A stretch of 64,000 bases of DNA from a virus. Lineage: Duplodnaviria; Heunggongvirae; Uroviricota; Caudoviricetes. Of this stretch, positions 57 through 52,296 are shown piece by piece. The position numbers and the translations under genes were made by a program. Under the pieces are notes generated by a model. The model was not told where the DNA came from, ran no database searches, and saw only the letters and a program-made list of their open reading frames with translations. The stretch is taken from IMG/VR virus record IMGVR_UViG_3300010882_000010, one strand, 5' to 3'. Position 1 is the first letter of the stretch, and every line of letters starts with the position of its first letter.

Positions 57-857
57 ATGGAACAATTAACAACAGACAGATTTTTTACTAAGAGTAAGAA
101 ACAAGGTGGAAATTTTTGGTATGATGATACAAATGCTACAGTAGCTTGTGAATGTTCATACAATTCCATGAATGATGAAAGATTGTTTGGTAAAGAGTAT
201 CGGTTTTTTGATCAGTGCATAGAATGTAATGGATATGGTAAAGTTCTTGAAGTAAAAAAGGTTAAGAATCCAATTACGAACAAAAAGGAAAAAGTTGCAA
301 AATGGGTTCAATGTAAAGAATGTAGAGGTGTGGGGATTTTTCCAAAAGATGAACCAATTATTGTAGGACCTTGTCCAAAATGCGGAGGTACAATGAAGTT
401 GGATAAAGTTAGTATTGATGATCCAATTACACTAAATGATATTGTAGTTTTGATAACTTTGACTACTTTTAAAAATTTGAAGAAATCAGATTTCATTACT
501 TTTCAAGAGAAGGTAAACAATATCAATGGGATAATTAACTTGAAAAAATATCAAGGAAAAGCAAGGTGTGCAGAATCTAAAACTCGACTTTTAAAACCAT
601 CTTACATCTTGGAAGATGTTTTAGAATACTTTCTTACTCACAGAGTACCATACAGAATTTTTCTTGATAAGGATAAGAAACTTTGCAATAATATCCAATT
701 GAAATTTACGGATAAAGAATGGGTGATAATTCCAGAATGGCTTGATGAAATTTTGTGTGAAACTAAAAAACTTAACAGAAGATATCGAACAAGATTTATC
801 GCAAATTTAAAAGAAGAATTAAAAACAGAAAAATGGGCAAAAATAATAGGGAAGTAA
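57..857 (+). CDS. Hypothetical protein with DnaJ-type zinc-finger motifs
   Basis: CIECNGYG, CKECRGVG, CPKCGG (CxxCxGxG-like). Confidence 0.6.
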   Translation: MEQLTTDRFFTKSKKQGGNFWYDDTNATVACECSYNSMNDERLFGKEYRFFDQCIECNGYGKVLEVKKVKNPITNKKEKVAKWVQCKECRGVGIFPKDEPIIVGPCPKCGGTMKLDKVSIDDPITLNDIVVLITLTTFKNLKKSDFITFQEKVNNINGIINLKKYQGKARCAESKTRLLKPSYILEDVLEYFLTHRVPYRIFLDKDKKLCNNIQLKFTDKEWVIIPEWLDEILCETKKLNRRYRTRFIANLKEELKTEKWAKIIGK

Positions 858-2119
858 TTTTTGTTGCAGATGATTGTTTAACAGAAAGACAAATTGCAGT
901 AATTAAAGAATTAGAGATTATCATGAACAGAGAAGACAAAATAGTAGATGAAGAAATGGAAAAACAAGAAAGAAGTTTAACAGAAAAGCAGATGTTAGAA
1001 AAAATTGGAAAGTTTTTTGAAGAAAAATCTTTGAAAGATAATGTTAACGTTAAAGAAGTTAGAAATTTAATGGTTGATCGAGTTTTTTCTGGAGATGATG
1101 CCTTAGATGCTAAGGTACTTTACATGATGAATTACAATAGTATTCCTAATTGGAATTCCATGTATCCGATTAATTGTGTGAAAGCAACTAATTTTGTGAT
1201 AGACAATTATAGTGATAAAGTTACTCATGCTAATTTTACTAAGAGACTTTTTAAGGTGAAAAATGTTGTGGAAATTGATGACATGTACCTACACTTTAAG
1301 GGTGATGTTTTAGTTTACTTCAACAAGAATGCGTTAGAAGTTTCAATTTTTTATGGTAGAAAATCAGATTTAGAGTTTGTTAATCAATTGACAGAAGACT
1401 TTAGAAAATTCAAGTATCGTAATTCTTATGCTAAACCGGAAATTCACTTATTAACATCTGGTGCAAGAGGATTAGAAGTTACACCATTAGAAATTACTAA
1501 GCCAAAACTTTCCATTGCAGATAATTACAATGATGATTTCCAAGAAATTCACAACACCATAATCAAAAGGTTGAAAAAGAAAAATGATAAAGGTATTGTA
1601 CTTTTGCACGGAAAACCGGGAACAGGAAAAACAAGTTACATCCGCTACTTAATTTCAAGTTTACGAAAAAACATTATTTTTTTACCACCAAATTTAGCAG
1701 GTGCCATGACAGATCCAAGTTTGATTAAAGTTTTGATAGAAAATCCGGGGTCAATTTTTGTAATTGAAGATGCTGAAACTATCATAATGGATAGAGGACA
1801 AAATGGTAATAATTCAGCAGTAAGTACTTTGTTAAATTTAGCAGATGGTTTATTATCAGACTGTTTGTCAATTCAAATTTTATGCACAATGAATTGTGAT
1901 ATTTCAAAAATTGATGAGGCCTTATTACGTAAAGGAAGATTAATTGCAAAATACGAATTTAATGAGTTGTGTACTGAAAAAGGACAAAAACTTAGTGATA
2001 AGTTAGGATTTAATACTAAGATAGAAAAACCAACAATTTTAGCTCAACTTTACAATCAAAATGATCCAACTTTTAATCCAAATACAGGACAAAAAAGAAT
2101 TGGATTTGCAATGAATTAA
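833..2119 (+). CDS. AAA+ family ATPase
   Basis: Walker A GKPGTGKT, Walker B VIEDAE, SRH DEALLRKGRL. Confidence 0.9.
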   Translation: MGKNNREVIFVADDCLTERQIAVIKELEIIMNREDKIVDEEMEKQERSLTEKQMLEKIGKFFEEKSLKDNVNVKEVRNLMVDRVFSGDDALDAKVLYMMNYNSIPNWNSMYPINCVKATNFVIDNYSDKVTHANFTKRLFKVKNVVEIDDMYLHFKGDVLVYFNKNALEVSIFYGRKSDLEFVNQLTEDFRKFKYRNSYAKPEIHLLTSGARGLEVTPLEITKPKLSIADNYNDDFQEIHNTIIKRLKKKNDKGIVLLHGKPGTGKTSYIRYLISSLRKNIIFLPPNLAGAMTDPSLIKVLIENPGSIFVIEDAETIIMDRGQNGNNSAVSTLLNLADGLLSDCLSIQILCTMNCDISKIDEALLRKGRLIAKYEFNELCTEKGQKLSDKLGFNTKIEKPTILAQLYNQNDPTFNPNTGQKRIGFAMN

Positions 2120-2137
2120 TCTGAATTAAAACCGAGG

Positions 2138-2145
2138 TAAATAGT
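2138..2145 (+). promoter_or_regulatory. Putative late promoter (TAAATAGT)
   Basis: Intergenic, identical to the octamer before the prohead protease gene; resembles the T4 late TATAAATA. Confidence 0.4.
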
Positions 2146-2171
2146 AAAATGATTAAAATAATAGTAAAATA

Positions 2172-2651
2172 ATGGTAAAGGATAAAAAAGCACTTGTATC
2201 AGAATTAACGAAATTAATTTTGGGTTCTAAAAACATGATTGATATTTTCAATGAATTTGCAGTTAATGCTAATTGGTTTGATTCTGAACTTTTTAGAAAT
2301 GATGAAGAGACTTTAGATGAAGTATTATCTAGTAAAAGACCAAGTGAAGTAGTTTTAATGATTCATAATGGAGAATACAGATATGCAGATGATTACTTTT
2401 TAATTAATAGTGAACAAAATTTAGACTCCTACAATGTACCAAAAGTAAAAGCATTTATGGAACCAATTTTAAAAAGTGACTTCTTACCTTACTTTATTGA
2501 TGATTTGCGAGACGGAACAACAAATTTCGAAGATTGGAATTTTCAAGATGCAAGAATTGAGAAATTTTTGCAAAATGAAGTAATGACTGTAGAATCAGAG
2601 TCAACAAAAAATTTTGATGATTTTTTAAATGGTAGAAAAGGAAAAAAGTAA
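2172..2651 (+). CDS. Hypothetical protein
   Basis: Intact 159 aa ORF filling the gap between neighbours. Confidence 0.7.
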   Translation: MVKDKKALVSELTKLILGSKNMIDIFNEFAVNANWFDSELFRNDEETLDEVLSSKRPSEVVLMIHNGEYRYADDYFLINSEQNLDSYNVPKVKAFMEPILKSDFLPYFIDDLRDGTTNFEDWNFQDARIEKFLQNEVMTVESESTKNFDDFLNGRKGKK

Positions 2652-2703
2652 AATAACTTTTAGTATTGAGTAGATAATAGGATATGCTACAAAATTTTTG
2701 AGA

Positions 2704-2711
2704 TATATAGT
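2704..2711 (+). promoter_or_regulatory. Putative late promoter of homing endonuclease gene (TATATAGT)
   Basis: AAATTTTTG..TATATAGTTAAA context shared with 9455. Confidence 0.45.
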
Positions 2712-4803: not shown

Positions 4804-4917
4804 ATGAAATTTTTTAAACTAGGAGTTTTAATCATATTGGCAACAATTTTGCCATGTGGTTTTTTAGTATTAGGAGTTTTCATCTATCAAGAATTTAAAA
4901 AATTAAAAACAGAATGA
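4804..4917 (+). CDS. Small membrane protein
   Basis: Hydrophobic 37 aa ORF with ATGA overlap into the next gene. Confidence 0.5.
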   Translation: MKFFKLGVLIILATILPCGFLVLGVFIYQEFKKLKTE

Positions 4918-6323
4918 AGTACTTAATTTCAGATGCAGAAAATGCAAATTATCTTGCAAAAGTAGCAGAATTAAAAGAAGTTGAAAAAGTTCCTGGCACA
5001 GACCGGTTGTATTACACTACAATTGATAATAGAACAGTCATTATTGATGATTCTTATCAAGTTGGAGATGTTATTGTTTACTTTCCATCGGGTTGTAAAA
5101 TTAATGGAGAGCTGCTTTCATCTTTAAATGCTTTCCGTAATGAAAATTTGAATGCTGATCCTAATCCAGATAAAACAGGATTTTTTGAAGATAATGGTCG
5201 GGTTAAAATGATTAAATTGCAAAAAATGTACTCAGAAGGTTACATCATTAGATGGAATCTTTTTGAAGCTTTTCTCTATGATAAAGGAATTAAAGGGGTT
5301 GTAGCTTTAGTTAGTGAAACTTTTGACAGTGTAGAACAAGATAAAGTAAAATTGCAAATTTGCGAAAAGTACGTAGTAAAGATAAAAGAATCGGGTGCAA
5401 GTATGGGAAGTAAACGTGCTAAAAAAAGTGCAATAGAGTTAATTTGTGATGACCAATTCAAGTTTCATGTTAAAGTAACAAGAATGGGAGAAGTTGCATG
5501 GAAGTTGACGCCAGAAAAGCATATCAATGTTTCTTGCAAGTATCATGGAACATCGGGAATTTCAGCTAACATTTTGTGCAAGAGAGAATTAGGATGGTGG
5601 GAAACTAAGTTTAAAAAATGGTTTGGATTTAAATTCCAAGAACAAGAGTACAAGGATGTTGCAGCAAGTAGAACTATTATTAAAGGAGTCGGTTCAGTTA
5701 ATCAAGATGCAGCCGATTTTAGGGGTTTTGATATTTGGAATCATGTGCATAATTTGATTAAGTCTAAATTATGGCAAGGAATGACTTTGTACTATGAAAT
5801 TGTTGGTTACACTCCAGGAGGAAAAATTATCCAAAAAGGTTACGATTATGGTTACAAAGCACCGGTTGATGATAAAATTGAAAACTACAAAATGGGAGAA
5901 AATTTTGGAGTTAAGGTTTATCGAATTACTTTGACGGATCCAAAGGGTAAAGTTTTTGAATGGTCAATGAACCAAATTGAAGATTTTTGTCAAAACACCG
6001 GCTTGGAAACTCCATTAGTTTACTTTGATGGTAAAGTTTCAGAGTTAATTGAAAAGGATAGATTTGATAATATTGCAAAAGCTGGTGAATGGGTTGGATT
6101 AAGTACAGGCGATCCAAAAGATATCTACAATTATTTTGCAACCATGAATCCTATGGAAAAGGATTGTCCAATTTGCAAAACTAAGGTTCCATTTGAGGGT
6201 GTAGTAATTCGGTTTGAAGGTAAAAATCGCTATGATGCTTTCAAATTAAAGTGTAAAGCTTTTGATGAAAGAGAAAGTAAAGCACTTGATAAAGGTGAAT
6301 CTAACATGGAAGATGAAGCCTAA
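4914..6323 (+). CDS. RNA ligase, DRB0094/Rnl2-like family
   Basis: N-terminal OB-like domain (VPGTDRL...VIVYFP); motif I KYHGTS, III YYEIVG, IIIa VKVYRI, IV EGVVIR, V FKLKC. Confidence 0.8.
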   Translation: MKYLISDAENANYLAKVAELKEVEKVPGTDRLYYTTIDNRTVIIDDSYQVGDVIVYFPSGCKINGELLSSLNAFRNENLNADPNPDKTGFFEDNGRVKMIKLQKMYSEGYIIRWNLFEAFLYDKGIKGVVALVSETFDSVEQDKVKLQICEKYVVKIKESGASMGSKRAKKSAIELICDDQFKFHVKVTRMGEVAWKLTPEKHINVSCKYHGTSGISANILCKRELGWWETKFKKWFGFKFQEQEYKDVAASRTIIKGVGSVNQDAADFRGFDIWNHVHNLIKSKLWQGMTLYYEIVGYTPGGKIIQKGYDYGYKAPVDDKIENYKMGENFGVKVYRITLTDPKGKVFEWSMNQIEDFCQNTGLETPLVYFDGKVSELIEKDRFDNIAKAGEWVGLSTGDPKDIYNYFATMNPMEKDCPICKTKVPFEGVVIRFEGKNRYDAFKLKCKAFDERESKALDKGESNMEDEA

Positions 6324-9454: not shown

Positions 9455-9462
9455 TATATAGT
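9455..9462 (+). promoter_or_regulatory. Putative late promoter of homing endonuclease gene (TATATAGT)
   Basis: Same context as 2704. Confidence 0.45.
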
Positions 9463-9478: not shown

Positions 9479-10546
9479 ATGAAAAAGTTTTGTCCAATTT
9501 GTAAAGAAGTAATGACGGGTCAACATTTAAAAAAATGCGCTAAAAAGTATGGGATTGAAAAATCATATGAAGACTTAAGATGGGAAGCTATGGATTTTAA
9601 TTATTGGTTTTTAATCAAAGATGTTTTAAGAGAATATCAAGAAGGATATTCAGTTTCAGATATTTCACAAAGATATGATGTATTATATTGTGATATTGTT
9701 ATTATCTTAGAACATTATGAGATTAAATTACGTGGTATAAAGGAGTCTCGAAATGAAAAATCGGTAGAAAAAGGAAAGAAAACATGTTTAGAAAACTTTG
9801 GTGTAGAAAATCCCTCACAATGTGAAAGCATAAAAGAACAAAAAAGAGAAACATTTACTAAAAATTTTGGAGTGGACAATGTTTTTAAAGCTGGTATTTT
9901 TATTGAATGGTTGGAACAATTTATGCTTGAAAAGTATGGTAAAAAACGAATTACAAATCCTGAAAAAATTTCGGCAGCCCAGCAAAAATTTACACAAGAA
10001 GAATGGGAATTAAGATTAGAGAAAATTCGAAAAACTTGTGAATTAAAGTTTGGTTATGATAATTATTCTAAAGTACCGGAAAGAAGAGATGATATTTCGA
10101 AAAAAGCAAAAATACGATGGGAAAATTATACTGATGATGAAAAAGCTAGATTATTATCTGTAACATTTCAAAAGGCACCAAATTATGTTTCAAAATTAGA
10201 AATACGGATACAAGAATTATTGAATGAATTACAGATTGAGTACACTACACAAAAGTTTTTTAAACGGCATAGCTATGATTTTTTTATCGAAGAATTTGGA
10301 ATAGTAATTGAAATAAATGGCGATTTTTGGCATGCTAATCCAAAATTTTACAAATCAGATGACTTATTGCCATTTCCTGGAGAATCTAAATTAGCTAATG
10401 AAATTTGGGAAAAAGATGTTCAAAAAAAGCAAATAATAGAGGATTTAGGTTTTCGTTTGATTATAATATGGGAAGATGAAATGAAATGTACAAATGAAGA
10501 ATTGGTTAGACTATTAATCTCTAAACTTGAAAATAATGAAAATTAA
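9479..10546 (+). mobile_element. Free-standing homing endonuclease (Vsr/DUF559-like C-terminus, xGVxN repeats) between the split-intein halves
   Basis: FGVENPSQ/FGVDNVFK/FGYDNYSK repeats; YDFF...VIEINGDFWHANP...GFRLIIIWE. Confidence 0.8.
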
Positions 10547-33269: not shown

Positions 33270-33285
33270 AAAATTAAAGGTAAGA

Positions 33286-33564: not shown

Positions 33565-33567
33565 GTA

Positions 33568-34062: not shown

Positions 34063-34065
34063 GCA

Positions 34066-35067: not shown

Positions 35068-35113
35068 AAAATAACAGGATTATATCCTACATTATTATAA
35101 AAAATAATTAACT

Positions 35114-35326: not shown

Positions 35327-35374
35327 AACTTACAATAATATAGGGTATATTCCTGAAAAATAATAAATATAATA

Positions 35375-35800: not shown

Positions 35801-35813
35801 AAAATAAATTATT

Positions 35814-36956: not shown

Positions 36957-36960
36957 ATAA

Positions 36961-37347: not shown

Positions 37348-37362
37348 AATTAAAAAACTATT

Positions 37363-37641: not shown

Positions 37642-37664
37642 AAATAAAATAAATAAAATAAATT

Positions 37665-38063: not shown

Positions 38064-38074
38064 AATTATAAAAT

Positions 38075-38443: not shown

Positions 38444-38470
38444 AGATAAAATGATAAAATAATAAAATAT

Positions 38471-39043
38471 ATGAAACAAAGAATAAGTACTTTAGAAAAT
38501 TACATCAATGAAAATCTTAATACAATGCAAAGAAGAGATATTGATGGATTTACAAAACCAGAACGTGAATGGATCTGGAAAACTTTAGGTATGCAAAATG
38601 GGTCAGATGTTTATCAAGTTCATTCAATGGAAGGAGTTAATAAAGCAGTAGCAAAAAGGGGTCAAGAAAATCCGGATTTTACAAAAGTAACAAAAAATCT
38701 AGGCAAGAAACTTGAAGGACCTATTAATTTTGGAGGACCAACAAGCCACAGAAATTGGTTTGTATATCAAGGAGAAAATTCTCCTGTGATTTCTATGGAA
38801 TCGGAAAATAATCAAGGTAATCAAGTCACTTATTTTTATTTTATGGATGCAGATGCTATTAATGAAAGTAAAATTATTGAATATTCTGTAATAAATCTTA
38901 ATGAAAAATTTGATATTAAAAAATTAGAATGGAAAAATTTTGATTATGAATTAGGTGAATTTTTATCAGATTATTTAGATACTATGAAATTAAAAGATAT
39001 AGCAGATGCTTTAAGATATGCAGCAGATAATTTAGATGAATAA
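38471..39043 (+). CDS. Putative internal head protein 10
   Basis: Leader MKQRISTLENYINE. Confidence 0.65.
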   Translation: MKQRISTLENYINENLNTMQRRDIDGFTKPEREWIWKTLGMQNGSDVYQVHSMEGVNKAVAKRGQENPDFTKVTKNLGKKLEGPINFGGPTSHRNWFVYQGENSPVISMESENNQGNQVTYFYFMDADAINESKIIEYSVINLNEKFDIKKLEWKNFDYELGEFLSDYLDTMKLKDIADALRYAADNLDE

Positions 39044-39061
39044 AAATATTAAAAAAATAAT

Positions 39062-39544
39062 ATGAAACAAAGGATACTAAATTTAGAAGAGTTTATTATG
39101 GAAGGAAACTTAAATGAAGCACAAGCAATAAGAATTTCCGGTTTTACAATTCTTTCAAAAGTATATCAAACAATGAAAGATGGATTACCATTTAAAGTTG
39201 TTATTAATGGAATACAATGTGCTGGATATTTAAATCCCATGTATTCTTATACTGGTGATGGCTTAGACTGTGATGAACTTATTATTGGTGTAGAACATCC
39301 AAGTGATTGGAGAAAAGGAGATAGAGTACTAATTACACAAGCAGGTGGAGGACATCGTCATTATGCAATCCATTTTGGAGCATTACCTGAAAAAGAAAAA
39401 CAACCAAAAAGTTTAAGATTTACTGGTGCTTATTTAGAAACAAAACACTTAGGCGAAGAATTTAAAAGACAATTAACAGATATTGTTATTAATCATCCAG
39501 ATTGGTTAACAGATAAATTTAAAGATAAATTTGGATTAAAATAG
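39062..39544 (+). CDS. Putative internal head protein 11
   Basis: Leader MKQRILNLEEFIME. Confidence 0.65.
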   Translation: MKQRILNLEEFIMEGNLNEAQAIRISGFTILSKVYQTMKDGLPFKVVINGIQCAGYLNPMYSYTGDGLDCDELIIGVEHPSDWRKGDRVLITQAGGGHRHYAIHFGALPEKEKQPKSLRFTGAYLETKHLGEEFKRQLTDIVINHPDWLTDKFKDKFGLK

Positions 39545-39571
39545 TTTTCTAGAGAAAACAAAAAAACACTT

Positions 39572-40288
39572 ATGAAACAGAGAATTTTAACATTCGAACA
39601 ATTTATTACAGAATCAAAATTAAATGAAAATGGACCTTTTAAACAACCATTAGAACAAATTTTTGGTTCTTTAATTAAAGGTTGGTATTATGATAGAAAT
39701 ATTGACGGTTTTTCAGAAGGTATGGATATTGCAGGAATTCCTGTTACTTTCTTTTTAAGACATCCAGATGAAATTGATGAAATTCCCGATTTTACTTTAG
39801 TAATTGAAGTAGGAGATGATGGTGAAAGTGGTGTTGCAATTTTAGAAGGTGAAAAAGAAATTAAGAAATTTTTAAAAGATGAATTATCAAAATTACAAAA
39901 AGCTACAAGTCCTAAAGAAATGGATAAAATAATTATTAAAGCAGGGTTTGAGTTAGTAGAAAGTCATATTGCATATCCAAAGGGTAAAAAAGTAAATGAA
40001 GCTGCTAGAAATCCATATCAAGATTTTATTAATTATTTTAAACAAGCAATTGCCGGAGCTGGTAAAGAAAATCATTATAAAATTAAAGATGCTTTATCTT
40101 GGTTTATTAAATCTAATTTTGATAAAAATGAGTTTGTAAGTGAAATGGACTGGAGATCAAATTATGGAAATAGTAAAGGATATGCACAATATCTTAAAGC
40201 AAAACATGTACTAAATGATAATGGATTACATGGTGAACCTGTACCACATGATGAAATGTTAAAAATTGTAAATAATCTTTTAGGATAA
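39572..40288 (+). CDS. Putative internal head protein 12
   Basis: Leader MKQRILTFEQFITE. Confidence 0.65.
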   Translation: MKQRILTFEQFITESKLNENGPFKQPLEQIFGSLIKGWYYDRNIDGFSEGMDIAGIPVTFFLRHPDEIDEIPDFTLVIEVGDDGESGVAILEGEKEIKKFLKDELSKLQKATSPKEMDKIIIKAGFELVESHIAYPKGKKVNEAARNPYQDFINYFKQAIAGAGKENHYKIKDALSWFIKSNFDKNEFVSEMDWRSNYGNSKGYAQYLKAKHVLNDNGLHGEPVPHDEMLKIVNNLLG

Positions 40289-40305
40289 TAAAATTAAGTT
40301 AAAAT

Positions 40306-40764
40306 ATGAAAAGAATTATTTCATTTAAAGATTTCATAAATGAAAATAAAGGTTTTCTTAATGAAGGAAAATTTTATAATTTAGATTATGATATTAAAAA
40401 TTTTATAAAAGATAATCCAGATTTTAATGCAAAATCTTATATTGAATTAAATGCACATAATACAAGTATTTCTATTCGTAAACAATATTATTATCTTGAA
40501 GGTATTGCAGATACAATAATTTATCAAAGTGGTTTAGGAAGAAATGTTAAATATGAATCTATTGGAAACGGAAATCCCAAAATTATTTTTAATGTAAGAT
40601 TAGATGAAGATAGAGTTAAAGACGGATTGGAATCATTAGTTGGATATTTTGGAAGTGATAAAAGAACAGGTGCTCATTATTCAGAAATTGAAGAAAATGA
40701 AAAGGAGGAAACAATAGTTAGTGCCGAAAATGATTATGGTGATATTTCTAGCCGATTATTATAA
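40306..40764 (+). CDS. Putative internal head protein 13
   Basis: Leader MKRIISFKDFINE. Confidence 0.65.
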   Translation: MKRIISFKDFINENKGFLNEGKFYNLDYDIKNFIKDNPDFNAKSYIELNAHNTSISIRKQYYYLEGIADTIIYQSGLGRNVKYESIGNGNPKIIFNVRLDEDRVKDGLESLVGYFGSDKRTGAHYSEIEENEKEETIVSAENDYGDISSRLL

Positions 40765-40778
40765 AAAGATAAACTATT

Positions 40779-40961
40779 ATGAATTATTGTGAATATTGCG
40801 GAAAAGAAGTAAAAGGAAATAAACGGTTTTGTTCTAAAAAATGTGCACAAGCTGTAAACGAAGAAAAATATGAACTTTATAATCATTTTGTAGACCAAGA
40901 GAATGGACAAGATAATTCATATTTAGATTATATTGATACAGGAATTTCAATTTATGGATAA
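40779..40961 (+). CDS. Small zinc-ribbon protein (no leader)
   Basis: YCEYCGKEV...FCSKKC. Confidence 0.65.
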   Translation: MNYCEYCGKEVKGNKRFCSKKCAQAVNEEKYELYNHFVDQENGQDNSYLDYIDTGISIYG

Positions 40962-40975
40962 AAATAAAAAATATA

Positions 40976-41359
40976 ATGAGTAGGATTAAATCATTTGAGG
41001 AATTTATAAACGAAAGCACAGTTTTTGAGTTGGGAAAAGCTTATGAGAAAATTAGAGTAAGTGAATTTCCAATTGAGCCAAGAAAGTTTATTAAAGATCA
41101 TTTTAGAAAAAATATAATTGAAGTTTATAAAGTAGATAATAATCTCAAAAGTGACTATAATGAACTTTTAAGTATAAGAACATATGGTAAACTTATTGAT
41201 GAAGTTTCTTTTAATGATGATGGCGCAATAATGTATTTCAAAGCATATTTATTTAAATTAACGGGAGAAAAATTGTTATTTATTAATTATCAAGCACAAG
41301 GCGTAAAAAATTCTTATCATTGTGCACTTTTAGAAAATAAAGAATTACAATATATCTAA
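40976..41359 (+). CDS. Putative internal head protein 14
   Basis: Leader MSRIKSFEEFINE. Confidence 0.65.
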   Translation: MSRIKSFEEFINESTVFELGKAYEKIRVSEFPIEPRKFIKDHFRKNIIEVYKVDNNLKSDYNELLSIRTYGKLIDEVSFNDDGAIMYFKAYLFKLTGEKLLFINYQAQGVKNSYHCALLENKELQYI

Positions 41360-41375
41360 TATGAAAATTTCAATT

Positions 41376-41383
41376 TATAAATA
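41376..41383 (+). promoter_or_regulatory. T4-type late promoter TATAAATA
   Basis: Exact T4 gp55 consensus, intergenic, upstream of 41418. Confidence 0.45.
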
Positions 41384-41417
41384 AAATATAGTTTTCTTTA
41401 AGAAACAAAAAAAACTT

Positions 41418-42245
41418 ATGAAACAAAGAATTTCAAATTTAAATAATTTTATTAATGAAAATAGATTTGGTGCTGGTATAAATACATATCTTAATTTAAA
41501 AGATGGACGCAAAAATCAATTTTTTACAAAACACTATAAAAATTGGAATGATAGTGATAAAAATGTAATTTTTATTATAGAAGATCCAAATAAATCAAAT
41601 TCTTATAGTGTGATGTCAGCTACTTATAGTAGTTATGATAATCCAGCTCATTGGGAATCTTATAATACACCAAAAGATGGTATGAGTTTACGAGAAGCAG
41701 AAAACGTTGCAAAAGAATTAGCTGATGTAAATTCTCAAATTCATCAAAAATATTATTATTTTAAATATCATAAAAATGATAATTCAATTTATGAATATAT
41801 TGGGGTTTTAGATAATAAAGAATTAAAAAGTATTTCCGAAAATAAAGATTTTATACAAGAATCAAAATATGATTTTTTATCTCAAGATTTTGGTATTGAT
41901 TTTAAAATTGATGAAGTTATTAAATCAATCGAAAGATTTTTAACTAAATATAATATTTCTTCTGAATTTTTACAATTAACTAAGACATCTACAGAATATA
42001 TTGAATTATTGGGTCATTCAGAATTATTTACAGGATTAAGTAGTTTATATCAAAAAATATTATTAAAATTTGATAGATATTTAACACATATTTATGAATA
42101 TAAATTATGGGTTTCTAAAGATCCTAAAGGTAATAGTGGTCCTATTTATGAAAAAGAAATTCAAAAAGGTATTAAGTATTTTTTAGGAGGAGGAATGGAA
42201 GAAGAATTACAAAAATTTAGAAATTCTGTTAGTAAAGTTTCTTAA
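41418..42245 (+). CDS. Putative internal head protein 15
   Basis: Leader MKQRISNLNNFINE. Confidence 0.65.
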   Translation: MKQRISNLNNFINENRFGAGINTYLNLKDGRKNQFFTKHYKNWNDSDKNVIFIIEDPNKSNSYSVMSATYSSYDNPAHWESYNTPKDGMSLREAENVAKELADVNSQIHQKYYYFKYHKNDNSIYEYIGVLDNKELKSISENKDFIQESKYDFLSQDFGIDFKIDEVIKSIERFLTKYNISSEFLQLTKTSTEYIELLGHSELFTGLSSLYQKILLKFDRYLTHIYEYKLWVSKDPKGNSGPIYEKEIQKGIKYFLGGGMEEELQKFRNSVSKVS

Positions 42246-42257
42246 AAATTTTAGGAA

Positions 42258-42265
42258 TAAATAGT
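42258..42265 (+). promoter_or_regulatory. Putative late promoter (TAAATAGT)
   Basis: Immediately upstream of the protease-scaffold and capsid operon. Confidence 0.5.
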
Positions 42266-42282
42266 AAAAATAATAGTAACAC

Positions 42283-44361
42283 ATGAAAAACGAAAAAGTA
42301 GTTTTAATTTGTGAAAGTACTGGTACAAATTTGGATGTAGTTGATAAAAATAATTATCGGCTAGAGGGGATATTTGCGGTTTTTGATAAGGAAAATAATA
42401 ATCATAGAATTTATGAGTGGAATGAATATAAACCACATATGAATTATCTTCAAGATCAAATTAAGAAGAATAAATTAGTTGGTGAGTTAGATCATCCTGA
42501 TAAATTTGATATTTCTCTTCAAAATGTTTCTCATATTGTAGAGAAGCTTTGGTATGATGAAAAAGAAAATGTTCTTAAAGGACAAATTCGTCTTTTAGAT
42601 ACTGATCCAAATGGTATGAATGCAAGAAAACTTTTAGATGCGGGATTTCCATTAGGTATTTCTTCTCGTGCGGCAGGTACTGTTCAAGAAAATAAAAAAG
42701 TTCGTCTTAACAAAGTTTTTACTTATGATTTAGTTTGTTCAACAGGTTTTCAAGGTGCTGATTTAGAACGTATTACAGAATCTGTAGGGTTTAATCCTGA
42801 AGATTATTCTAAAGAACCTACTTTAACTTTATTAAATGAATCATTAGGTATTGACAATAATAATATTAAAGTTTATGATGTAACAGACCAATATCCAGAA
42901 TATCTTACCGGAAGTGAAATTATTGATCAAATAGGTATTGAAAGTTATATTAAACAATATATTGTTGGCGAAAGAGGAAAGGATAGAATTAAAAATGAAT
43001 CTGAAATATATAATAAAAATAATGCAAAAAATATGAAAGATACTAGTAATTTTGTTTCTATTGATGAAATGCACAAGTATTCATTACATGTAAAAGAAGA
43101 AGTTAGTCGTATTGATAAAACGTTACAAAGTATTTCTGAAAGTATTTCTAAAATAGTTACAGGTGATGATACATCTAAAGACGAAAAAATTCTTGCTTTA
43201 GAAAAAGAGATTTCTAAATTAAGAAAAGATTCTTTAGATTTATCTGAAAAAATGTCTACTGTTTACAAATGGTCTGAGGAAATTTCTAAAGATCATAATT
43301 ATCTTGTAGAGTATACTGAAAAAATTGCGGAAGACCATAATCATTTGGTAAACTATGCAGAAAAAATTGCAGAAGATCACAATTACCTTACTAATTATAC
43401 TGAAAAGATTGCTGAAGATCATAATTACCTTGCAAATTATGCAGAGAAAATTGCAGAGGATCATAATTATGTAGCAAGTTATGTTGATGATAAAATTAGA
43501 CCACTTCTTGAAAATACAATAAATTATGCTGAAATGGTTGCTGAAAAAGCTAATATTGGTATGAATTATGTTGAGGATGTAATTGTAAATGAATTACACA
43601 AAACACAAGAGTATGTGAATGATGTATTGGTGGAAAAACTTAATGTTCTTTGGAATTATAGTGAATATCTTGGAGAAAAAGCAAATGAAGTAACTTCTTA
43701 TGCTGAATATCTTGGAGAAAATGCAGCAACAAAAGAAGATTTAGAATCAGTGATTGGTTACACAGAATTAGTAGCTGAATCTGTTAAATCTTTAAAAGTT
43801 AATGAATCAAAGAATACTACAATAAATGAAAATGCAACAGTTAATAGATACACAAGCCTAAATGAGAAAATAGACAATCTTCTCCATTCGATTAAAACAG
43901 AAAAGATCAATGAAAACAAATTTTTAGGTAATCTAACAAATGAACAACAAAAAAGATTTATCAATTTTACAGACGTACAAAAAGAACAGTTCGAAAAATC
44001 GTTAAATCCGGCAATGAATCAAGAACAGATTCAAATGATGTTTGAGTCAATTTCGACTCCTAAAATTCTTTCTAATGAAGAAAGATGGCTTGCAGCAATG
44101 CCAGAGAATGTTAAACCTCTTTGGGAAAGTGTAACTCCTGAATTAAAAGAAAGAATTTTTAGAAACGCACAATTGTACAATTTTAACAATGATTATGCGG
44201 TAAAACACTATTGGAACTCTAAAATTAGTTTACTTGGCGGACAAAATGATACTACTTTGATAAAAGAAAGTACTCAAAATGAATTAGAAGATGAAAAAGT
44301 TAAAACTCTTGGATATGGTTCAGACTATATCAAATCTATCTTCGAAAAAATGGGTAACTAA
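42283..44361 (+). CDS. gp21: Prohead core protease (gp21-like) fused to scaffold (gp22-like)
   Basis: LEGIFA...N.NHRIY, LVGELDHP, VSH, GISSRAAG, YDLV; C-terminal coiled coil with repeats; precedes the capsid gene. Confidence 0.85.
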   Translation: MKNEKVVLICESTGTNLDVVDKNNYRLEGIFAVFDKENNNHRIYEWNEYKPHMNYLQDQIKKNKLVGELDHPDKFDISLQNVSHIVEKLWYDEKENVLKGQIRLLDTDPNGMNARKLLDAGFPLGISSRAAGTVQENKKVRLNKVFTYDLVCSTGFQGADLERITESVGFNPEDYSKEPTLTLLNESLGIDNNNIKVYDVTDQYPEYLTGSEIIDQIGIESYIKQYIVGERGKDRIKNESEIYNKNNAKNMKDTSNFVSIDEMHKYSLHVKEEVSRIDKTLQSISESISKIVTGDDTSKDEKILALEKEISKLRKDSLDLSEKMSTVYKWSEEISKDHNYLVEYTEKIAEDHNHLVNYAEKIAEDHNYLTNYTEKIAEDHNYLANYAEKIAEDHNYVASYVDDKIRPLLENTINYAEMVAEKANIGMNYVEDVIVNELHKTQEYVNDVLVEKLNVLWNYSEYLGEKANEVTSYAEYLGENAATKEDLESVIGYTELVAESVKSLKVNESKNTTINENATVNRYTSLNEKIDNLLHSIKTEKINENKFLGNLTNEQQKRFINFTDVQKEQFEKSLNPAMNQEQIQMMFESISTPKILSNEERWLAAMPENVKPLWESVTPELKERIFRNAQLYNFNNDYAVKHYWNSKISLLGGQNDTTLIKESTQNELEDEKVKTLGYGSDYIKSIFEKMGN
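43276..43485 (+). repeat. Five tandem 42 bp / 14 aa repeats in the scaffold region
   Basis: EEISKDHNYLVEYT, EKIAEDHNHLVNYA, EKIAEDHNYLTNYT, EKIAEDHNYLANYA, EKIAEDHNYVASYV. Confidence 0.9.
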
Positions 44362-44405: not shown

Positions 44406-46178
44406 ATGAAATTATTAAACGAAAAACAAATCTTTGAAGAATGGTCACCAATGATCATGGAAAAAGCTGGTGTAGAAGACAAAGGTAAATTACAATGGTT
44501 GTCAAAATATTGTCATTTTCATGCGTTAAATGAAAGTTCTTTTATTCCTAATATGCCAAGTTGGCCACTTGCTAGCTTGCAAAACACTCCAGGTATGGGT
44601 AATGTTCGCACTGGTACGATTGCTGGTGGAGCAAACAACTTCTACAATGGAACAACAGGTTCTGGTGATAAATTCCCAAGCCTACTTCCTCTTGCTATTC
44701 AAGTAGGCGCAAGAACAGTAGGTTTTGATATTGTGCCGGTTATCCCAATGAACGGTCCTAGCGGAGTTCTTACTTACTTAGACTATGTTTATGCTGGTGG
44801 TAAAAACAATCCGTCAATCTCTCAAGATGCTGAATTAGAATATCCTGCAGATGAACTTCAAGAAATGCCAACTGTTATTAAAGCTGATATTACACTTCCT
44901 ACTGGTGAATTTTTCGAAATTGGAAAACTTTACAATGCTGGTGATTTGGATATGATCTATGTTGGTAAATCACGTGTAGATGGTTTCTCTATTTTCAGAA
45001 TTTTAAAAGAAGGTGAAAAATACAGAACTACTGCAAGTAAAGCTTTACAAACTTCTGCAACTGTTGCAGGTGTTACTATTGCTGATGTTTTTGGTATTGG
45101 ATCAACAGAAGAACTTGAAACAAGTAAAAAAGATGCAACTGGTGCAATTGTAGCTGGTAGTGATGTTGTTATTGGTAACTCAAAACCGTCATTAGTTAAA
45201 GCTCTTGAAGATCACATTCAAGGTTTTGCTGGTTCTGGTGCTTTTGATAGTGATGATTGGACAGGTAACTTTGTAAACGGTAAGATGATTGCTGAACCTA
45301 TGCGTAGAGGTATTGGAGAACAAACTCCATTCAGAACTATGGGTCTTCAAGCTTTCACAAAATATGTTGAAGCTGGTACTTTTCAAGTTGCTGCTACTGT
45401 AACTACAGAACAAATCCAAGACTTGAATCGTCAATTTGGTATTGATGTTGTAGGTATGGTTGAAAACTCACTTACTAATGAAATTTCACAACACATCAAT
45501 AAACACATCTTGAGTCGTGCTTTTGCTCTTGGTTGGTCAAACCATAAACAATTCTCAATTGTTGAAGGTCAATCTTTGAACATGACTGCAGTTCCTGGTG
45601 TGGCTTCTGTTGTTGTACGTCATGTAGGTAAAGATAATAGTATGCAAGATATGACAGTTGCAGGCTTTGTTGACTATGCAGCTGGTGGTCCTGGTGCTTC
45701 TTTCGAAAATCAATGGACAATTCAAAGACGTGTATTCTCTAAAATCCTTGCTGCCGGTAATATTATCGCACAAAGAGGACGTAGAGGACCTGCTAACTTT
45801 ATTGTAACTAACTTGCAAATTGCAACAGTATTACAAGATAGTGCACAATTTACTTTTGCTCCTATGGCTAATACTATCAACCAAAATAACGGATCTTTAT
45901 TCCCAGTAGGTGCTATTGCAGGTATTACTGTTTATGTTGATCCTAATATGGCTTGGGACGATAATAGAGTACTTGTAGGACGTAAAGGTGCTGATGAAGA
46001 ACCGGGTTTAAAATTCATGCCTTACTTACTTGCTGAAAGTATCCAAACTATTGCTGAAGGAACTATGGCTCCTAAAATTGCAGTAAAATCGCGTTATGCT
46101 CTTGTAGAAGCAGGTTTCCATCCTGAAACTCAATACTTGACTTTCTGGGTTGAAACAGGTGGTATCTCAATTGTGTAG
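44406..46178 (+). CDS. gp23: Major capsid protein (T4 gp23-like)
   Basis: VVPVIPMNGPSG.L.YL, EISQHINKHIL, GRRGPANFIV, ITVYVDP, GLKFMPY, KSRYAL; follows the protease. Confidence 0.9.
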   Translation: MKLLNEKQIFEEWSPMIMEKAGVEDKGKLQWLSKYCHFHALNESSFIPNMPSWPLASLQNTPGMGNVRTGTIAGGANNFYNGTTGSGDKFPSLLPLAIQVGARTVGFDIVPVIPMNGPSGVLTYLDYVYAGGKNNPSISQDAELEYPADELQEMPTVIKADITLPTGEFFEIGKLYNAGDLDMIYVGKSRVDGFSIFRILKEGEKYRTTASKALQTSATVAGVTIADVFGIGSTEELETSKKDATGAIVAGSDVVIGNSKPSLVKALEDHIQGFAGSGAFDSDDWTGNFVNGKMIAEPMRRGIGEQTPFRTMGLQAFTKYVEAGTFQVAATVTTEQIQDLNRQFGIDVVGMVENSLTNEISQHINKHILSRAFALGWSNHKQFSIVEGQSLNMTAVPGVASVVVRHVGKDNSMQDMTVAGFVDYAAGGPGASFENQWTIQRRVFSKILAAGNIIAQRGRRGPANFIVTNLQIATVLQDSAQFTFAPMANTINQNNGSLFPVGAIAGITVYVDPNMAWDDNRVLVGRKGADEEPGLKFMPYLLAESIQTIAEGTMAPKIAVKSRYALVEAGFHPETQYLTFWVETGGISIV

Positions 46179-47631: not shown

Positions 47632-48582
47632 ATGAATTTTGATATAATAATTTCTAATCCTCCTTTTAATAGTGGTACCACTAAAGCTGCTATTCCTATT
47701 TATAATTTAATTTTTGAAAAAATTAGAGAATATTCAGATAAAATAGTTTATTTAATACCAGTTAGATGGACTTCAGGTGGTAAAGGACTTGAGTATTTTA
47801 GAAAAAAAATTAAACAATCTAAAAGAATAAAATCAATAATAGATTATAATTTTCCATCATTATATCTTAAATTTAACGGATTTGATATTCGAGATGGTTT
47901 AATAATTTTAGATTATGATAAAAAATATCTAGGAATTTGTAATTATGAATATTATTCAAAAAATTATACCGAAATTATACAAAGAAGTTTAAATAATAAT
48001 ATTTCCGATTTTATTTTTAGAAATAGCATAGAAGAAAGTATTATATCAAAAATTTTTAATAATTCTACTAAATTTTTTGATAATTTTGTTTCATTTCGTT
48101 CTCCATTTGGAAATTTTACTAAGGTACAATTAAAAGAAAAAGAATTTAAAAATGCTATTAAAGTTTTCGCAACTAATGGTATTGGCGGAAATTGTAAAAG
48201 AGTAAAATATTGGATAGATAAAAATTTAGTTGTTAAAAATATTGAAAAAATTAAAAAATGGAAATTATTTCACGGAAAAGCAGGTTCTAAAAATTCTCAA
48301 GCAGAAATTATTTTAGGAAAACCTAATGAAATTTGTACTGAAAGTTTTTTAATGATAGATTTTGAAAGTGAGCAAGAATCTAAAAATTGTTTAGATTTTA
48401 TGCAAACTAAATTTTTTCAAATATTATTAAAAATAGGTAGATCAGGATATTCTATTTCAAAGAAAAGTTTTCAATTTATACCTTGGTTAGATTTTAATAA
48501 AATCTATACAGATGAATTTTTATTTAATCACTTTAATTTAGATAAAAAAGAAATTCAATATATAATAAAAGAAATTAAGTAA
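47632..48582 (+). CDS. Eco57I-like N6-adenine MTase C-terminal half (motif IV plus TRD, no motif I)
   Basis: Begins MNFDIIISNPPF; LIPVRWTSGGKGL, ICTESFL, TKFF; no FxGxG SAM-binding motif found. Confidence 0.75.
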   Translation: MNFDIIISNPPFNSGTTKAAIPIYNLIFEKIREYSDKIVYLIPVRWTSGGKGLEYFRKKIKQSKRIKSIIDYNFPSLYLKFNGFDIRDGLIILDYDKKYLGICNYEYYSKNYTEIIQRSLNNNISDFIFRNSIEESIISKIFNNSTKFFDNFVSFRSPFGNFTKVQLKEKEFKNAIKVFATNGIGGNCKRVKYWIDKNLVVKNIEKIKKWKLFHGKAGSKNSQAEIILGKPNEICTESFLMIDFESEQESKNCLDFMQTKFFQILLKIGRSGYSISKKSFQFIPWLDFNKIYTDEFLFNHFNLDKKEIQYIIKEIK

Positions 48583-48944
48583 TGATTTCAGAAATATATG
48601 CAAAACTTCCAGATGATGTAACTTTTCAAGAAGATTTTATAATTCATTCAGATGTATATGAGTCTATTTTACAAAAAGTTAGAATGATTCTTTTTACAAA
48701 TAGAGGTGAAATTTTAGGTGATCCAAATTTTGGAGTTAGTCTTACAGAGTATGTTTTTGCATTAAATGCAAGTAATCAAACTATTAAAAAAGAAATTGAG
48801 GAACAAATTTCACATTATATTCCTGAAGCTCTTTATATTGATATTTCAGTAAATGTTACTTTTCGACAAGAAAATTTTCAAGATGTTTGTTATATTGATA
48901 TTCGTATTGATGGAACAGATGCAATGCGACTTTTAGTTTCTTAA
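48582..48944 (+). CDS. gp25: Baseplate wedge protein, gp25-like
   Basis: ILFTNRGEILGDPNFGVSL.EYVF. Confidence 0.8.
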   Translation: MISEIYAKLPDDVTFQEDFIIHSDVYESILQKVRMILFTNRGEILGDPNFGVSLTEYVFALNASNQTIKKEIEEQISHYIPEALYIDISVNVTFRQENFQDVCYIDIRIDGTDAMRLLVS

Positions 48945-48954
48945 CTTTTAAATT

Positions 48955-49008
48955 GTTAGTAAATTTTTTCTTTTTTAACGTTTTATATCAAACTTTTTAG
49001 TATTTTTG
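48955..49008 (+). promoter_or_regulatory. Class I bipartite early promoter
   Basis: GTTAGTAAA at 48955, TATTTTTG at +46. Confidence 0.65.
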
Positions 49009-49039
49009 TATTTAAATTAAAGTTTAAATATTAAAATAG

Positions 49040-49150
49040 ATGACGTTATTAGAATTTTATAATGCACCTCAATTTCAAGGTAAATCTGGACTTTATCTTT
49101 TATATTATAAAAACGAAGGCAAAAAATATTATAAATATAGATTTACTTAA
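49040..49150 (+). pseudogene. Possible GIY-YIG N-terminal stub (36 aa)
   Basis: KSGLYLLYYKNEGKKYY resembles KSGIY...YIG. Confidence 0.3.
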
Positions 49151-49519: not shown

Positions 49520-50305
49520 ATGAATTTTAATTGTATCATAATGAATCCACCTTATGGAGATTTGCACTTACCAATACTTGTACAGTCTCTTAAAATTTCA
49601 ACTAATGTAATTAGTTTGCAGCCGGTTAGATGGTTGCAGGATCCTCTTAGTTCTTTTAAATCATTTTCAGATTACAAAAAGTTTTCATATCTATCAGTAC
49701 ATGTTGCTCATTTAATTTCTAAGAATATTGCATCAGAACAGTTTGATGCAGTAATAACAATGGATTTAGGAATTTACACTACTAATCATAATTTTCCATC
49801 TGTTCAACTTTATGATACTGAAGTTTTTGCAAAAATTAAACCATTTCTAAGTACTCCAATTGTACTTTATCAAGAATCTTTACATCAAGAACAGTATTTT
49901 GTACCAATTAGAGACTTTTTGCCGGTTAATAGAATTAAACATCGGTATGAAGTTTGTTATTCTTACTTAGACATCATCCACAAAGGTAAAATTCAATCCG
50001 GTTTAACAATTCAAGAAGCAATTATTCAGAATAAGCAAGTTACACAAGGAATGGATAATAAAAAGATTTTAGGAGTTGTTTTTCAGACACTTAATGAAGC
50101 ACAGAATTTTAGAACTTCTACTTTTAGTACTTTCTATCAATATTGTGTTTTAACTTTAATGACAGATGTTCATGTTTATCACAAATGGTTGCCATATATG
50201 CTTGATTATGAAGAACCTTGGATTGATGAAAGATTTTATCAGTATTTTAAGATATCAAAGAAAAAACAAAAAGAGATAGAAACTAAAATACTACCACACA
50301 AATGA
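49520..50305 (+). CDS. Second N6-adenine MTase C-terminal half (motif IV plus TRD)
   Basis: Begins MNFNCIIMNPPY; LQPVRWL; ends WLPY.LDYEEPW.DERFYQYF. Confidence 0.7.
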   Translation: MNFNCIIMNPPYGDLHLPILVQSLKISTNVISLQPVRWLQDPLSSFKSFSDYKKFSYLSVHVAHLISKNIASEQFDAVITMDLGIYTTNHNFPSVQLYDTEVFAKIKPFLSTPIVLYQESLHQEQYFVPIRDFLPVNRIKHRYEVCYSYLDIIHKGKIQSGLTIQEAIIQNKQVTQGMDNKKILGVVFQTLNEAQNFRTSTFSTFYQYCVLTLMTDVHVYHKWLPYMLDYEEPWIDERFYQYFKISKKKQKEIETKILPHK

Positions 50306-50748: not shown

Positions 50749-50797
50749 TAACTTTTTCTAAATTTTGAGTTTTGTGTCAGTATTTTTAGTATTTTTG
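50744..50797 (+). promoter_or_regulatory. Class I bipartite early promoter
   Basis: GTTAGTAAC at 50744, TATTTTTG at +46; spacer nearly identical to the 29261 copy. Confidence 0.7.
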
Positions 50798-50817
50798 TAC
50801 TATCAAAATTTAACAAA

Positions 50818-51045
50818 ATGACAAAAGAAAAAGAAGAAATTATCAATAGTATGATAGTAATTGCTGATGAAAAGCAATTACTATTAGAGGAAATTTACGA
50901 CGAATTTCCTGGTATTAAAAGACAAGAAACTTGTCCGTCTTCACTTTTTTAGTCTAATTATGGTCAATTAATCGGAATGGTTAAGATGATGGAGGTTGTT
51001 AATATTGATACAAGAAAATACGAGAAAACATTAGACAAATTTTAA
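50818..51045 (+). pseudogene. Hypothetical gene with in-frame TAG at 50950-50952
   Basis: 44 codons, TAG, then 30 codons to TAA just before the next ATG. Confidence 0.45.
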
Positions 51046-51048
51046 GTT

Positions 51049-51249
51049 ATGGAATTTAAGTTTAAAGTAAAAGATGAGGTAATTAAATCTGATGAGCCAT
51101 ATGAAATGGGAGAAGGTTGTGAGTGGAAAATATTACAAATGTGGCATAATTCTTGGTCTCATACGAATGAATACTTAATTGAAGGTGGTTATTGTAATCA
51201 GTTTCATGAAGTGGTAATAGAAGATAAAATTGAATTATTAGGTACTTAA
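51049..51249 (+). CDS. Hypothetical protein
   Basis: Intact ORF. Confidence 0.6.
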   Translation: MEFKFKVKDEVIKSDEPYEMGEGCEWKILQMWHNSWSHTNEYLIEGGYCNQFHEVVIEDKIELLGT

Positions 51250-51261
51250 AAATTAAGAATT

Positions 51262-52296
51262 ATGGGAGGTAAAGCTATGGCTCTTCATGGAGTCCAAACA
51301 GAAAGAAAATCAACAGAAGATCATTTGAGAATTCAAAGTGAATTAGTTCCTGTTATTGCTGAAATGTTTAAAACTGAAGTAAAAACAGTTCTTTTTTACA
51401 GAACTAAAGATTCTCATGGTGATCTTGATTTGCTTGTGTTAAATAATGGAAATTTAGGTAATATCAACAACAAATTAAAAGAACGATTTGGAGTTATGAA
51501 CAATAATGGAGGTGTTTGCTTTTCTTTTGCATATGATAATTACCAAGTAGATGTAATTCCAATTTCGAAAGAAAGTTGGATGTGTACCGATTTTTTTAAC
51601 TATGATCCTAGCGGGAATTTGTGTGGTAAAATAGCTCACAAGTTTGGTGCTAAATTTGGTAATAATGGCTTGGAATATCCATTTCGTAACTTTTCTGGTA
51701 GGCTTTCAAAGGATTTGGTAATTACAAAAGACCATAGAAAAGCTTTAGAGTTTTTGGGTTTTGATTATGAAAGGTATGCACAAGGTTTTGACACAGTAGA
51801 AGAAATTTTTGAATGGGTAATCAGTTCAAAGTATTTCAATTTAGAAATTTTTCAAATTGAAGCACTTGGTCATAAAGATCGTTTAAGACAAAGAAAACGT
51901 GATACTTACAATAAATTTTTAGAGTACATAGCAGCAAAAAATTTGACAAATCCTTGGGTGTTTGAAAAGGATAAATCGGTTTATCTTGATAAAATCGAAG
52001 AAGCTTTTCCAGAATCAAAGTTGAAAGAAAAGCTTGCAAAATTAAAAGAAGAAGACGATTTAAACAAATTATCATCTGAAAAGTTTAATGGTAGTTTAGT
52101 TATGGAATGGACCGGTTTACAAGGTAAAGAACTTGGAAATTGTCTTAGTGATTTTAGAAGTGAAGTTTGTTCTTCAATAGGTGAAATTAGATTTAGAGAT
52201 TTCATCTTAAATTTTGAAGATGATGCAGATATTAGAACCTATTTTGACGGTTGGTATTCACTTAATAAAGAACGTTATGATAACAGTAGCAGATAA
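51262..52296 (+). CDS. Pol-beta/PolX-type nucleotidyltransferase with CCA-enzyme-like tail
   Basis: YRTKDSHGDLDLLV, YQVDVI, AHKFGAKFGNNGL; tail NGSLVMEWTGLQGKELG. Confidence 0.6.
   Translation: MGGKAMALHGVQTERKSTEDHLRIQSELVPVIAEMFKTEVKTVLFYRTKDSHGDLDLLVLNNGNLGNINNKLKERFGVMNNNGGVCFSFAYDNYQVDVIPISKESWMCTDFFNYDPSGNLCGKIAHKFGAKFGNNGLEYPFRNFSGRLSKDLVITKDHRKALEFLGFDYERYAQGFDTVEEIFEWVISSKYFNLEIFQIEALGHKDRLRQRKRDTYNKFLEYIAAKNLTNPWVFEKDKSVYLDKIEEAFPESKLKEKLAKLKEEDDLNKLSSEKFNGSLVMEWTGLQGKELGNCLSDFRSEVCSSIGEIRFRDFILNFEDDADIRTYFDGWYSLNKERYDNSSR

Follow-up and report, generated by a model that had tools for sequence, protein, structure and literature searches.

Why is the word TATA scarce in most of the genome of an AT-rich phage, and why is it common in a few blocks of the same genome? 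The question is raised by a 64,000-nucleotide stretch of DNA, called the window below, from the Caudoviricetes record IMGVR_UViG_3300010882_000010 of IMG/VR. A first-pass annotation of the window described a strong, mosaic avoidance of TATA. It proposed long-term selection through one of three agents (spurious late promoters, a TATA-directed restriction or modification system, or a UAUA-specific mRNA interferase), and it regarded TATA density as an internal clock of recently acquired modules. According to the present analysis, a long-acting, word-specific force has acted against TATA in this phage, beyond codon or dinucleotide usage.

The window is the minus strand of positions 80388–144387 in a single 217.7-kb contig, which is the phage genome. 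The GC content is 30%, and 276 of the 289 genes lie on one strand. The gene set consists of greedy longest open reading frames, which is a heuristic; the main results were all reproduced on the raw sequence. The resident set comprises 236 plus-strand genes of the genome, and the resident part covers about 172 of the 218 kb. In the codon shuffle, synonymous codons were permuted within each gene, so that the protein and the codon usage of the gene were kept. Frame-specific trinucleotides, and hence codon junctions, are accounted for in the 3-periodic maximal-order Markov model.

The window contains 246 TATA words, against 1015 expected from composition, 474 from a first-order model and 391 from a maximal-order model, and dinucleotide shuffles of the window give 473±19. 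The corresponding numbers for the whole genome are 625 seen against 3183, 1467 and 1136 expected. In the resident genes, 185 TATA words are present and 763 are expected by the codon shuffle (observed/expected ratio, O/E, 0.24; z −34). This is the most extreme value among the 256 tetramers, and the next most significant word has a z of about −22. The 3-periodic Markov model expects 548 (O/E 0.34, z −15.5). Resident DNA holds TATA at 0.06–0.12 of the compositional expectation in each sixth of the genome. Outside a few blocks, about three quarters to nine tenths of the TATA words are gone, by synonymous rewriting. The depletion reported by the first-pass annotation thus persists after control for codon and dinucleotide usage. 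The low counts that it gave for single genes from a manual scan were also found again:

833–2119, + strand, AAA gene: 1 TATA, 5.8 expected by synonymous shuffle.
4914–6323, + strand, RNA ligase gene: 0 TATA, 6.1 expected.
44406–46178, + strand, major capsid gene: 0 TATA, with 16.8 expected from composition, 7.4 by the Markov model and 2.5 by the shuffle.
51262–52296, + strand, nucleotidyltransferase gene: 0 TATA, 3.5 expected.

The depletion is specific to the word, and it does not extend to TA-containing words as a whole, most of which are near 1 under the codon shuffle. After TATA, the lowest of them in the resident genes are CTAG (0.54), TACG (0.62) and ATAT (0.69). ATAT stands at 1.18 under the 3-periodic Markov model. 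TTAA, AATT and TAAT are near 1, and the TA-N-TA words range from 0.75 to 1.06. Codon usage as the cause is ruled out by the codon shuffle together with the frame-specific Markov model, and general avoidance of TA or AT-rich words is ruled out because other such words are not depleted. Slippage at (TA)2 was rejected, since the same repeat read in the other phase, ATAT, is unaffected. The TA-N-TA words carry two TpA steps at another spacing and are not depleted, so generic flexibility or melting is not the cause.

Some other words also deviate in the resident genome. Among the 16 palindromic tetramers compared, CTAG (0.36), GATC (0.51) and GGCC (0.52) are low. CTAG and GATC are low in the islands and in related phages too, and GGCC is low in the islands (0.39) but not in the relatives (1.23). 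Palindromes containing CG are enriched by the Markov model (CCGG 1.47, CGCG 1.99, GCGC 1.77). The 6-bp palindromes ATGCAT (11 against 43 expected) and TTCGAA (16 against 43) are depleted; TTCGAA is low also in the islands and relatives, whereas ATGCAT is not low in the relatives. Words containing CCC are strongly avoided (ACCC 11 against 108; CCCA 0.36), and CCCC is absent from the window.

The word is removed by whichever silent change is available. The share of TAT among Tyr codons of the resident genes is 18% before A and 76% otherwise, so the remark of the first-pass annotation that Tyr is written TAC before A is correct. The share of ATA among Ile codons is 6% after T and 26% otherwise, and the share of xTA among Leu, Ile and Val codons is 2.5% before Tyr and 38.5% otherwise. 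In the islands, TAT makes up 74% of the Tyr codons before A and 88% otherwise. All three reading frames are depleted (O/E 0.31, 0.07 and 0.24). The altered position within TATA differs by frame, and the change is always silent. The resident intergenic spacers hold 38 TATA words, where 258 are expected from composition and 78 by the Markov model. The leftover sites are evenly distributed along the genes, with no positional bias.

TATA is self-complementary, and therefore the strand on which the purge acts can be read only from the flanks. At −2, the O/E values for A, C, G and T are 0.30, 0.18, 0.26 and 0.17; at +2, those for the complementary T, G, C and A are 0.37, 0.12, 0.32 and 0.16. The flank effects at ±2 and ±3 are mirror images (r 0.95), a match reached by 0.5% of alternative base mappings. 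Y-N-TATA-N-R is the most depleted form, and A-N-TATA-N-T is spared. The coding strand is compositionally very asymmetric, yet the flank effects are mirrored, which argues for a reader or process on duplex DNA. These results point to a purge at the level of duplex DNA. A separate, strand-specific signal was observed for RCATT words, which are avoided on the sense strand only (TGCATT 5 against 48, its complement AATGCA 1.12; GCATTA 0.20, GACATT 0.21, ACATTA 0.29). This avoidance is found also in the islands and not in the relatives, and it perhaps acts at the RNA level.

The purge was looked for in 11 related loci and T4. Six of these loci, with 66–72% capsid identity, have TATA O/E values of 0.81–0.96 by the codon shuffle and about 1.0 by the Markov model. 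The values are 1.08 for Lak (Lak-C1), 0.98 for LR756500, 0.92 for PTm1 and 0.92 for T4. The capsid gene has no TATA here, and its orthologues in the six relatives have 3–8. A family trait is thus rejected. A host-like sample of 80 Bacteroidales loci, picked via the MgsA-like phage gene at 32370 and serving as candidate host DNA, gave a median Markov O/E of 0.83 at GC contents of 34–56%, and host mimicry is rejected for this candidate DNA. Among the sampled genomes none shares the TATA purge, which is lineage-specific. As a positive control for site avoidance in the same phage group, PTm1 has 5 GATC against 124 expected. In PTm1 (174681–224680), CCGG is also low (3 against 19) and CGCG is absent, and the record includes annotated type II restriction-modification genes of PTm1 itself.

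The capsid protein, a member of the T4 Gp23 family, is 40–44% identical to those of Lak megaphages and LR756500 and 33% identical to that of Tenacibaculum phage PTm1. No capsid relative nearer than 72% identity was found in a set of 5.8 billion proteins. The same gene order occurs in strains whose capsid gene is identical, and one 2.1-kb piece of their DNA is identical. Metagenomes in which the phage is present include the ENA assemblies ERZ27257304 and ERZ27257297. The methylglyoxal-synthase-like (MgsA-like) gene at 32370–32819 of the window, located at the left edge of the large island, gives a hint of the host range. Its product is 73–74% identical to proteins of Tannerellaceae (Parabacteroides/Tannerella) and other Bacteroidales. 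The phage is a jumbo phage of the group of Lak megaphage relatives, and its hosts are probably gut-type Bacteroidales.

The mosaic described by the first-pass annotation is real. The background of the window (49.4 kb) holds 89 TATA words, or 1.8 per kb, whereas the islands (14.6 kb) hold 157, or 10.8 per kb. The segments and genes concerned are as follows.

1–32369, purged resident segment: 65 TATA in 32.4 kb, about 2 per kb against about 15 per kb by composition.
9479–10546, + strand, endonuclease gene inside the split ligase: unpurged class, 4 TATA against 7.3 (P 0.78).
32370–44361, + strand, largest unpurged island of the window: 119 TATA, GC 0.26; it contains the MgsA-like gene (32370), gene 33211, a leader-tagged head-cargo array (33568–42245) and a prohead protease/scaffold gene (42283–44361).
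47632–49136, + strand, unpurged island: 23 TATA, GC about 0.22; a truncated methyltransferase (47632–48582), a gp25-like gene (48582–48944) and the following spacer.
49520–50305, + strand, distant paralogue of the 47632 product: purged class, 1 TATA against 6.5.
62794–63862, + strand, unpurged island: 15 TATA, GC 0.21; a KTSC-domain gene and a GIY-YIG/NUMOD3 homing endonuclease.

Single genes of the window also fall into the unpurged class, for example those at 9479, 11844, 25422 and 60881. The prohead protease/scaffold gene has 9 TATA words, eight of them before 43660. The TATA-rich places named by the first-pass annotation were recovered: three words lie in 34141–34200 of the cargo array (at 34177, 34186 and 34192), the half-methyltransferase at 47632 has 11 compared with 1 in that at 49520, and among the homing endonucleases the GIY-YIG enzyme at 63074 has 9. 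The product of 47632–48582 aligns over its full length to the C-terminal ~60% of gamma-class N6-adenine methyltransferases of 507–539 residues (N6_Mtase and Eco57I domains), at 29–39% identity. As only this C-terminal part is matched, the product is a truncated or split enzyme that lacks the cofactor-binding half. A PDB sequence search with both methyltransferase-like products (47632 and 49520) gave no matches.

Two further regions lie outside the window. One is the largest island there, which extends over both ends of the contig and consists of giant orphan genes after the baseplate region, probably tail fibres. One gene among these giants is purged (1 TATA against 13.5). A second cassette with the same leader peptides (MKQRIGTLEDFITE and similar, capsid-targeting-like) is located at 22894–36238 of the genome in the orientation of the window, and it is purged, with 12 TATA against about 51. 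Inside this cassette, a low-GC, TATA-normal gene without a leader (27937–28689) is probably a later insertion. One cargo cassette is purged and the other is not. This indicates that the mosaic follows residence time, and not gene function or timing.

A two-class Poisson mixture fitted to the per-gene counts gives O/E values of 0.17 and 0.70 and improves the Bayesian information criterion by 83; a third class brings no gain. Because only two states are resolved, TATA density is a two-state marker of resident and imported DNA. Of the internal clock proposed earlier, the marking of modules of different history stands, and the graded clock is not supported. The islands contain TATA at 0.49–0.64 of the compositional expectation, which is the range of the relatives. 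Their codon-shuffle O/E is 0.75, compared with about 0.90 in the relatives, and this slight difference may be the start of amelioration. The islands have an atypical composition, with GC varying from 0.21 to 0.36, sharp boundaries, and mobile or exchange-prone gene content. The homologue of gene 33211 is the immediate upstream neighbour of the protease gene in the relatives, whereas in this phage the two are separated by the cargo array. We favour the explanation that the islands are DNA imported after most of the purge.

The best fit to these results is avoidance of a TATA-directed, restriction-like activity on DNA, which we hold tentatively and somewhat short of an even chance. The data show a strong and long-lasting pressure on the duplex DNA of the resident genome, confined to this lineage and directed at exactly TATA, which was lost wherever a silent change was possible (TAT to TAC before A, no ATA after T, no xTA before Tyr), and also in spacers. 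The agent would read TATA as a palindrome with weak symmetric flank preferences, and it may be a restriction-like nuclease or a glycosylase encountered in the Bacteroidales host range of the phage. With every TATA site that is lost, escape from cleavage would become more likely. The TATA-normal blocks (the cargo array, the tail-fibre-like giants, the truncated methyltransferase with the gp25-like gene, and the homing endonucleases) would have entered after most of the purge. The marks of site avoidance were observed: the under-representation remains after control for composition and coding, and it is frame-independent, present in non-coding DNA and strand-symmetric at ±2 and ±3. Among the agents named by the first-pass annotation, a restriction-like system is thus the one that fits best, as the depletion is frame-independent and intergenic, has mirrored flanks, is not seen in host-like DNA and is accompanied by other low 4-bp palindromes. 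Late promoters and a UAUA-specific RNase are disfavoured.

Several points weigh against avoidance of a restriction-like activity. No restriction enzyme or methyltransferase with TATA specificity is known to us, and to our knowledge TATA and ATAT are the only 4-bp palindromes without a known enzyme; this lowers the prior for restriction. Literature searches for a TATA-specific enzyme or methylase, or for TATA under-representation in phages, gave nothing relevant. The genome retains 625 TATA sites, 390 of them in the islands. With so many sites, a classical 4-cutter would still shred the genome, except if each site has a good chance of escape, if the pressure no longer exists or if the phage is now protected in another way. 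The symmetry of the flanks is broken at one position (−1 C 0.56, +1 G 0.27). Nearly the same observations would be expected from a mutational process that is strand-symmetric and specific for TATA. Donors of the island genes were not found in IMG/VR or in the 5.8-billion-protein set, where the best matches have 30–51% identity, and the codon usage of the islands is otherwise near that of the resident genes.

It is possible, if rather doubtful, that the purge is the footprint of an undescribed TATA-specific DNA-targeting defence in Bacteroidales, such as a restriction endonuclease, a base-excision restriction enzyme or another methylation-linked system. In that case, the pressure would have been strong enough for the lineage to rebuild its late-promoter consensus without TATA, and the TATA-normal blocks would date from after a host switch or the acquisition of a counter-defence.

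The alternatives are given in falling order of probability. The first, which we consider unlikely, is that TATA gives rise to spurious transcription starts and is purged in both gene orientations for that reason; it would form the core of an element that resembles a promoter or melts easily, used by the host polymerase or by a gp55-type late machinery of the phage. The lineage does purge promoter-like words on both strands. The late-core words TAAATA (22 against 97, 0.23) and TATTTA (33 against 128, 0.26) are depleted in the resident genes, as are TATTTG/CAAATA (0.31/0.32) and TACATA/TATGTA (0.38/0.18). The late-core words stand at 0.76 in the islands and 0.93–1.02 in the relatives, and most of the related words are near 1 there, but TATGTA is at 0.37 in the islands. 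Promoter-like words are thus selected against in this phage. In four relatives with 66–68% capsid identity, a recurrent TATATAA-type motif, AATATATAAAA, is located about 20–30 nt before start codons, and the T4 late promoter is TATAAATA.

The promoters of the phage itself do not fit this explanation. Three classes of upstream motif were found, namely a late type GGAATAAATAGTAAAAG, a host type with a GTTAGTAAC box and a TAnnTTTG-like element, and a third type AAACTTTTT...GTGTAATAATAA, and TATA is present in none of them. An exact copy of the late type is located as follows.

42254–42269, + strand, late-type motif copy GGAATAAATAGTAAAA, TATA-free, upstream of the protease–capsid operon.

The motif of the relatives contains TATA and GGAATAAATAGTAAAAG does not, so the late consensus of this lineage is a TATA-free version. 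Depletion does not track promoter likeness either: some of the mildest depletion is seen in TATAAT (0.44) and TATACT (0.52), and the most depleted contexts are TATACG (0 against 21), TATAAG (1 against 32, 0.03) and TATACA (0.12). T4 (0.92) and the relatives (0.81–0.96) have TATA-containing promoters and show no purge. A different element, AAATTTTTG-N3-5-TATATAGTTAAA, which contains TATATAG, was observed at 2704–2709 and 9455–9460, upstream of gene 2725 and of the endonuclease gene 9479. This element does not resemble any of the three main promoter classes, and mobile genes may carry it as a promoter.

Next comes a lineage-specific bias of mutation or repair by which TATA is lost from duplex DNA with no selection on the word itself, for example site-specific nicking or base excision followed by error-prone repair, with the imports too young to be affected. 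Such a bias is again unlikely. Strand symmetry, independence of frame and activity in spacers would all follow naturally from it, young DNA would be spared, and in genes only silent outcomes would survive, as seen. However, no substitution route or product word is prominent (TACA 1.12, TGTA 0.98, CATA 0.96, TATG 0.91), ATAT is untouched, and we know of no 4-bp-specific mutator of this kind. The rebuilding of the late promoter consensus in a TATA-free form suggests a functional pressure, and we infer selection rather than mutation.

It is improbable that the TATA-rich blocks are old residents which are exempt through their function or expression class. Their nearly resident codon usage and the lack of donors agree with exemption, as does the fact that at least one island gene, the one at genome position 207611, is preceded by the native late motif. 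The two leader-tagged cargo cassettes differ, however, with one of them purged, and a purged gene is also present within the terminal island. Furthermore, the islands hold classic mobile genes (the GIY-YIG endonuclease and the truncated methyltransferase), their GC contents differ, and the cargo array is an insertion relative to the relatives.

A nucleoid or silencing protein, or a structure-specific nuclease, that acts on flexible TpA-rich DNA at a cost local to each gene is very unlikely. The phage is far more AT-rich than the candidate hosts, TATA consists of two adjacent TpA steps, and a local cost could yield differences from gene to gene; but the effect is word-specific, with TA-N-TA, TAAT, TTAA and ATAT not depleted, the gene classes are two-state and not graded, and two like cargo cassettes differ.

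The least probable alternative is a UAUA-specific endoribonuclease (a host toxin or a RegB-like enzyme of the phage): it agrees with a transcriptome nearly all from one strand, in which the spacers are therefore transcribed too, with the gradual site loss that a cost per transcript would favour and with the sparing of C before TATA, but mirrored preferences at ±2 and ±3 are not expected of an RNA reader, the leftover sites have no positional bias within genes, and late cargo genes are found both purged and unpurged.

The words that a phage avoids are a classic indicator of which sequences its host can cleave. In this phage, whose group, the Lak megaphage relatives, has poorly known hosts and defences, no cutter of the avoided word is known to us. 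If the agent is a nuclease, a new enzyme specificity is predicted, and the place to look for it is the methylomes of Tannerellaceae-like genomes from the same samples. Whatever the cause, TATA density separates resident from imported genes, and it marks one head-cargo cassette and the tail-fibre module as newcomers.

It is well established that virulent double-stranded DNA phages counter restriction by losing its sites, wholly or in part (Rusinov et al., 2018, PMC6286503). The present case resembles this strategy in that a short palindrome is strongly scarce in the phage and not in host-like DNA, removal is silent in all frames and extends to spacers, and GATC, CTAG and GGCC are also low. It differs in that the removal of TATA is incomplete, with O/E values of 0.1–0.3 compared with about 0.04 for GATC in PTm1. 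It differs also in the word itself, which has no known enzyme or methylase, and in the 390 sites within unpurged blocks.

Bacteria select against spurious promoter motifs in their genes, as in the avoidance of the −10 hexamer. In the phage, similarly, both strands are purged of its late-promoter core (TAAATA/TATTTA) and of a host −7-like word. Unlike in that system, TATA is absent from the promoters of the phage, TATAAT is comparatively spared, and T4 and the near relatives are unpurged. Transcripts under mRNA interferases (MazF, ACA) and T4 RegB (GGAG) are poor in cleavage sites. The purge is like this in that the loss of a word of 3–4 nt would protect individual transcripts, and it is unlike it in its mirrored flanks and its lack of positional bias, which point to duplex DNA and not to RNA.

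Horizontally acquired genes are compositionally atypical and ameliorate with time, according to the concept of Lawrence and Ochman, and the periphery of T4-type genomes is plastic. The atypical blocks described here belong to the classes that are exchanged there, that is, tail fibres, internal-protein arrays, homing endonucleases and methyltransferases. The marker is, however, a single tetranucleotide and not GC content or codon usage; it has two states, and no donors were identified. Thus, word avoidance and compositional islands are both known; what is new is the word that is targeted, the confinement of the effect to one lineage and the two-state nature of the mosaic.

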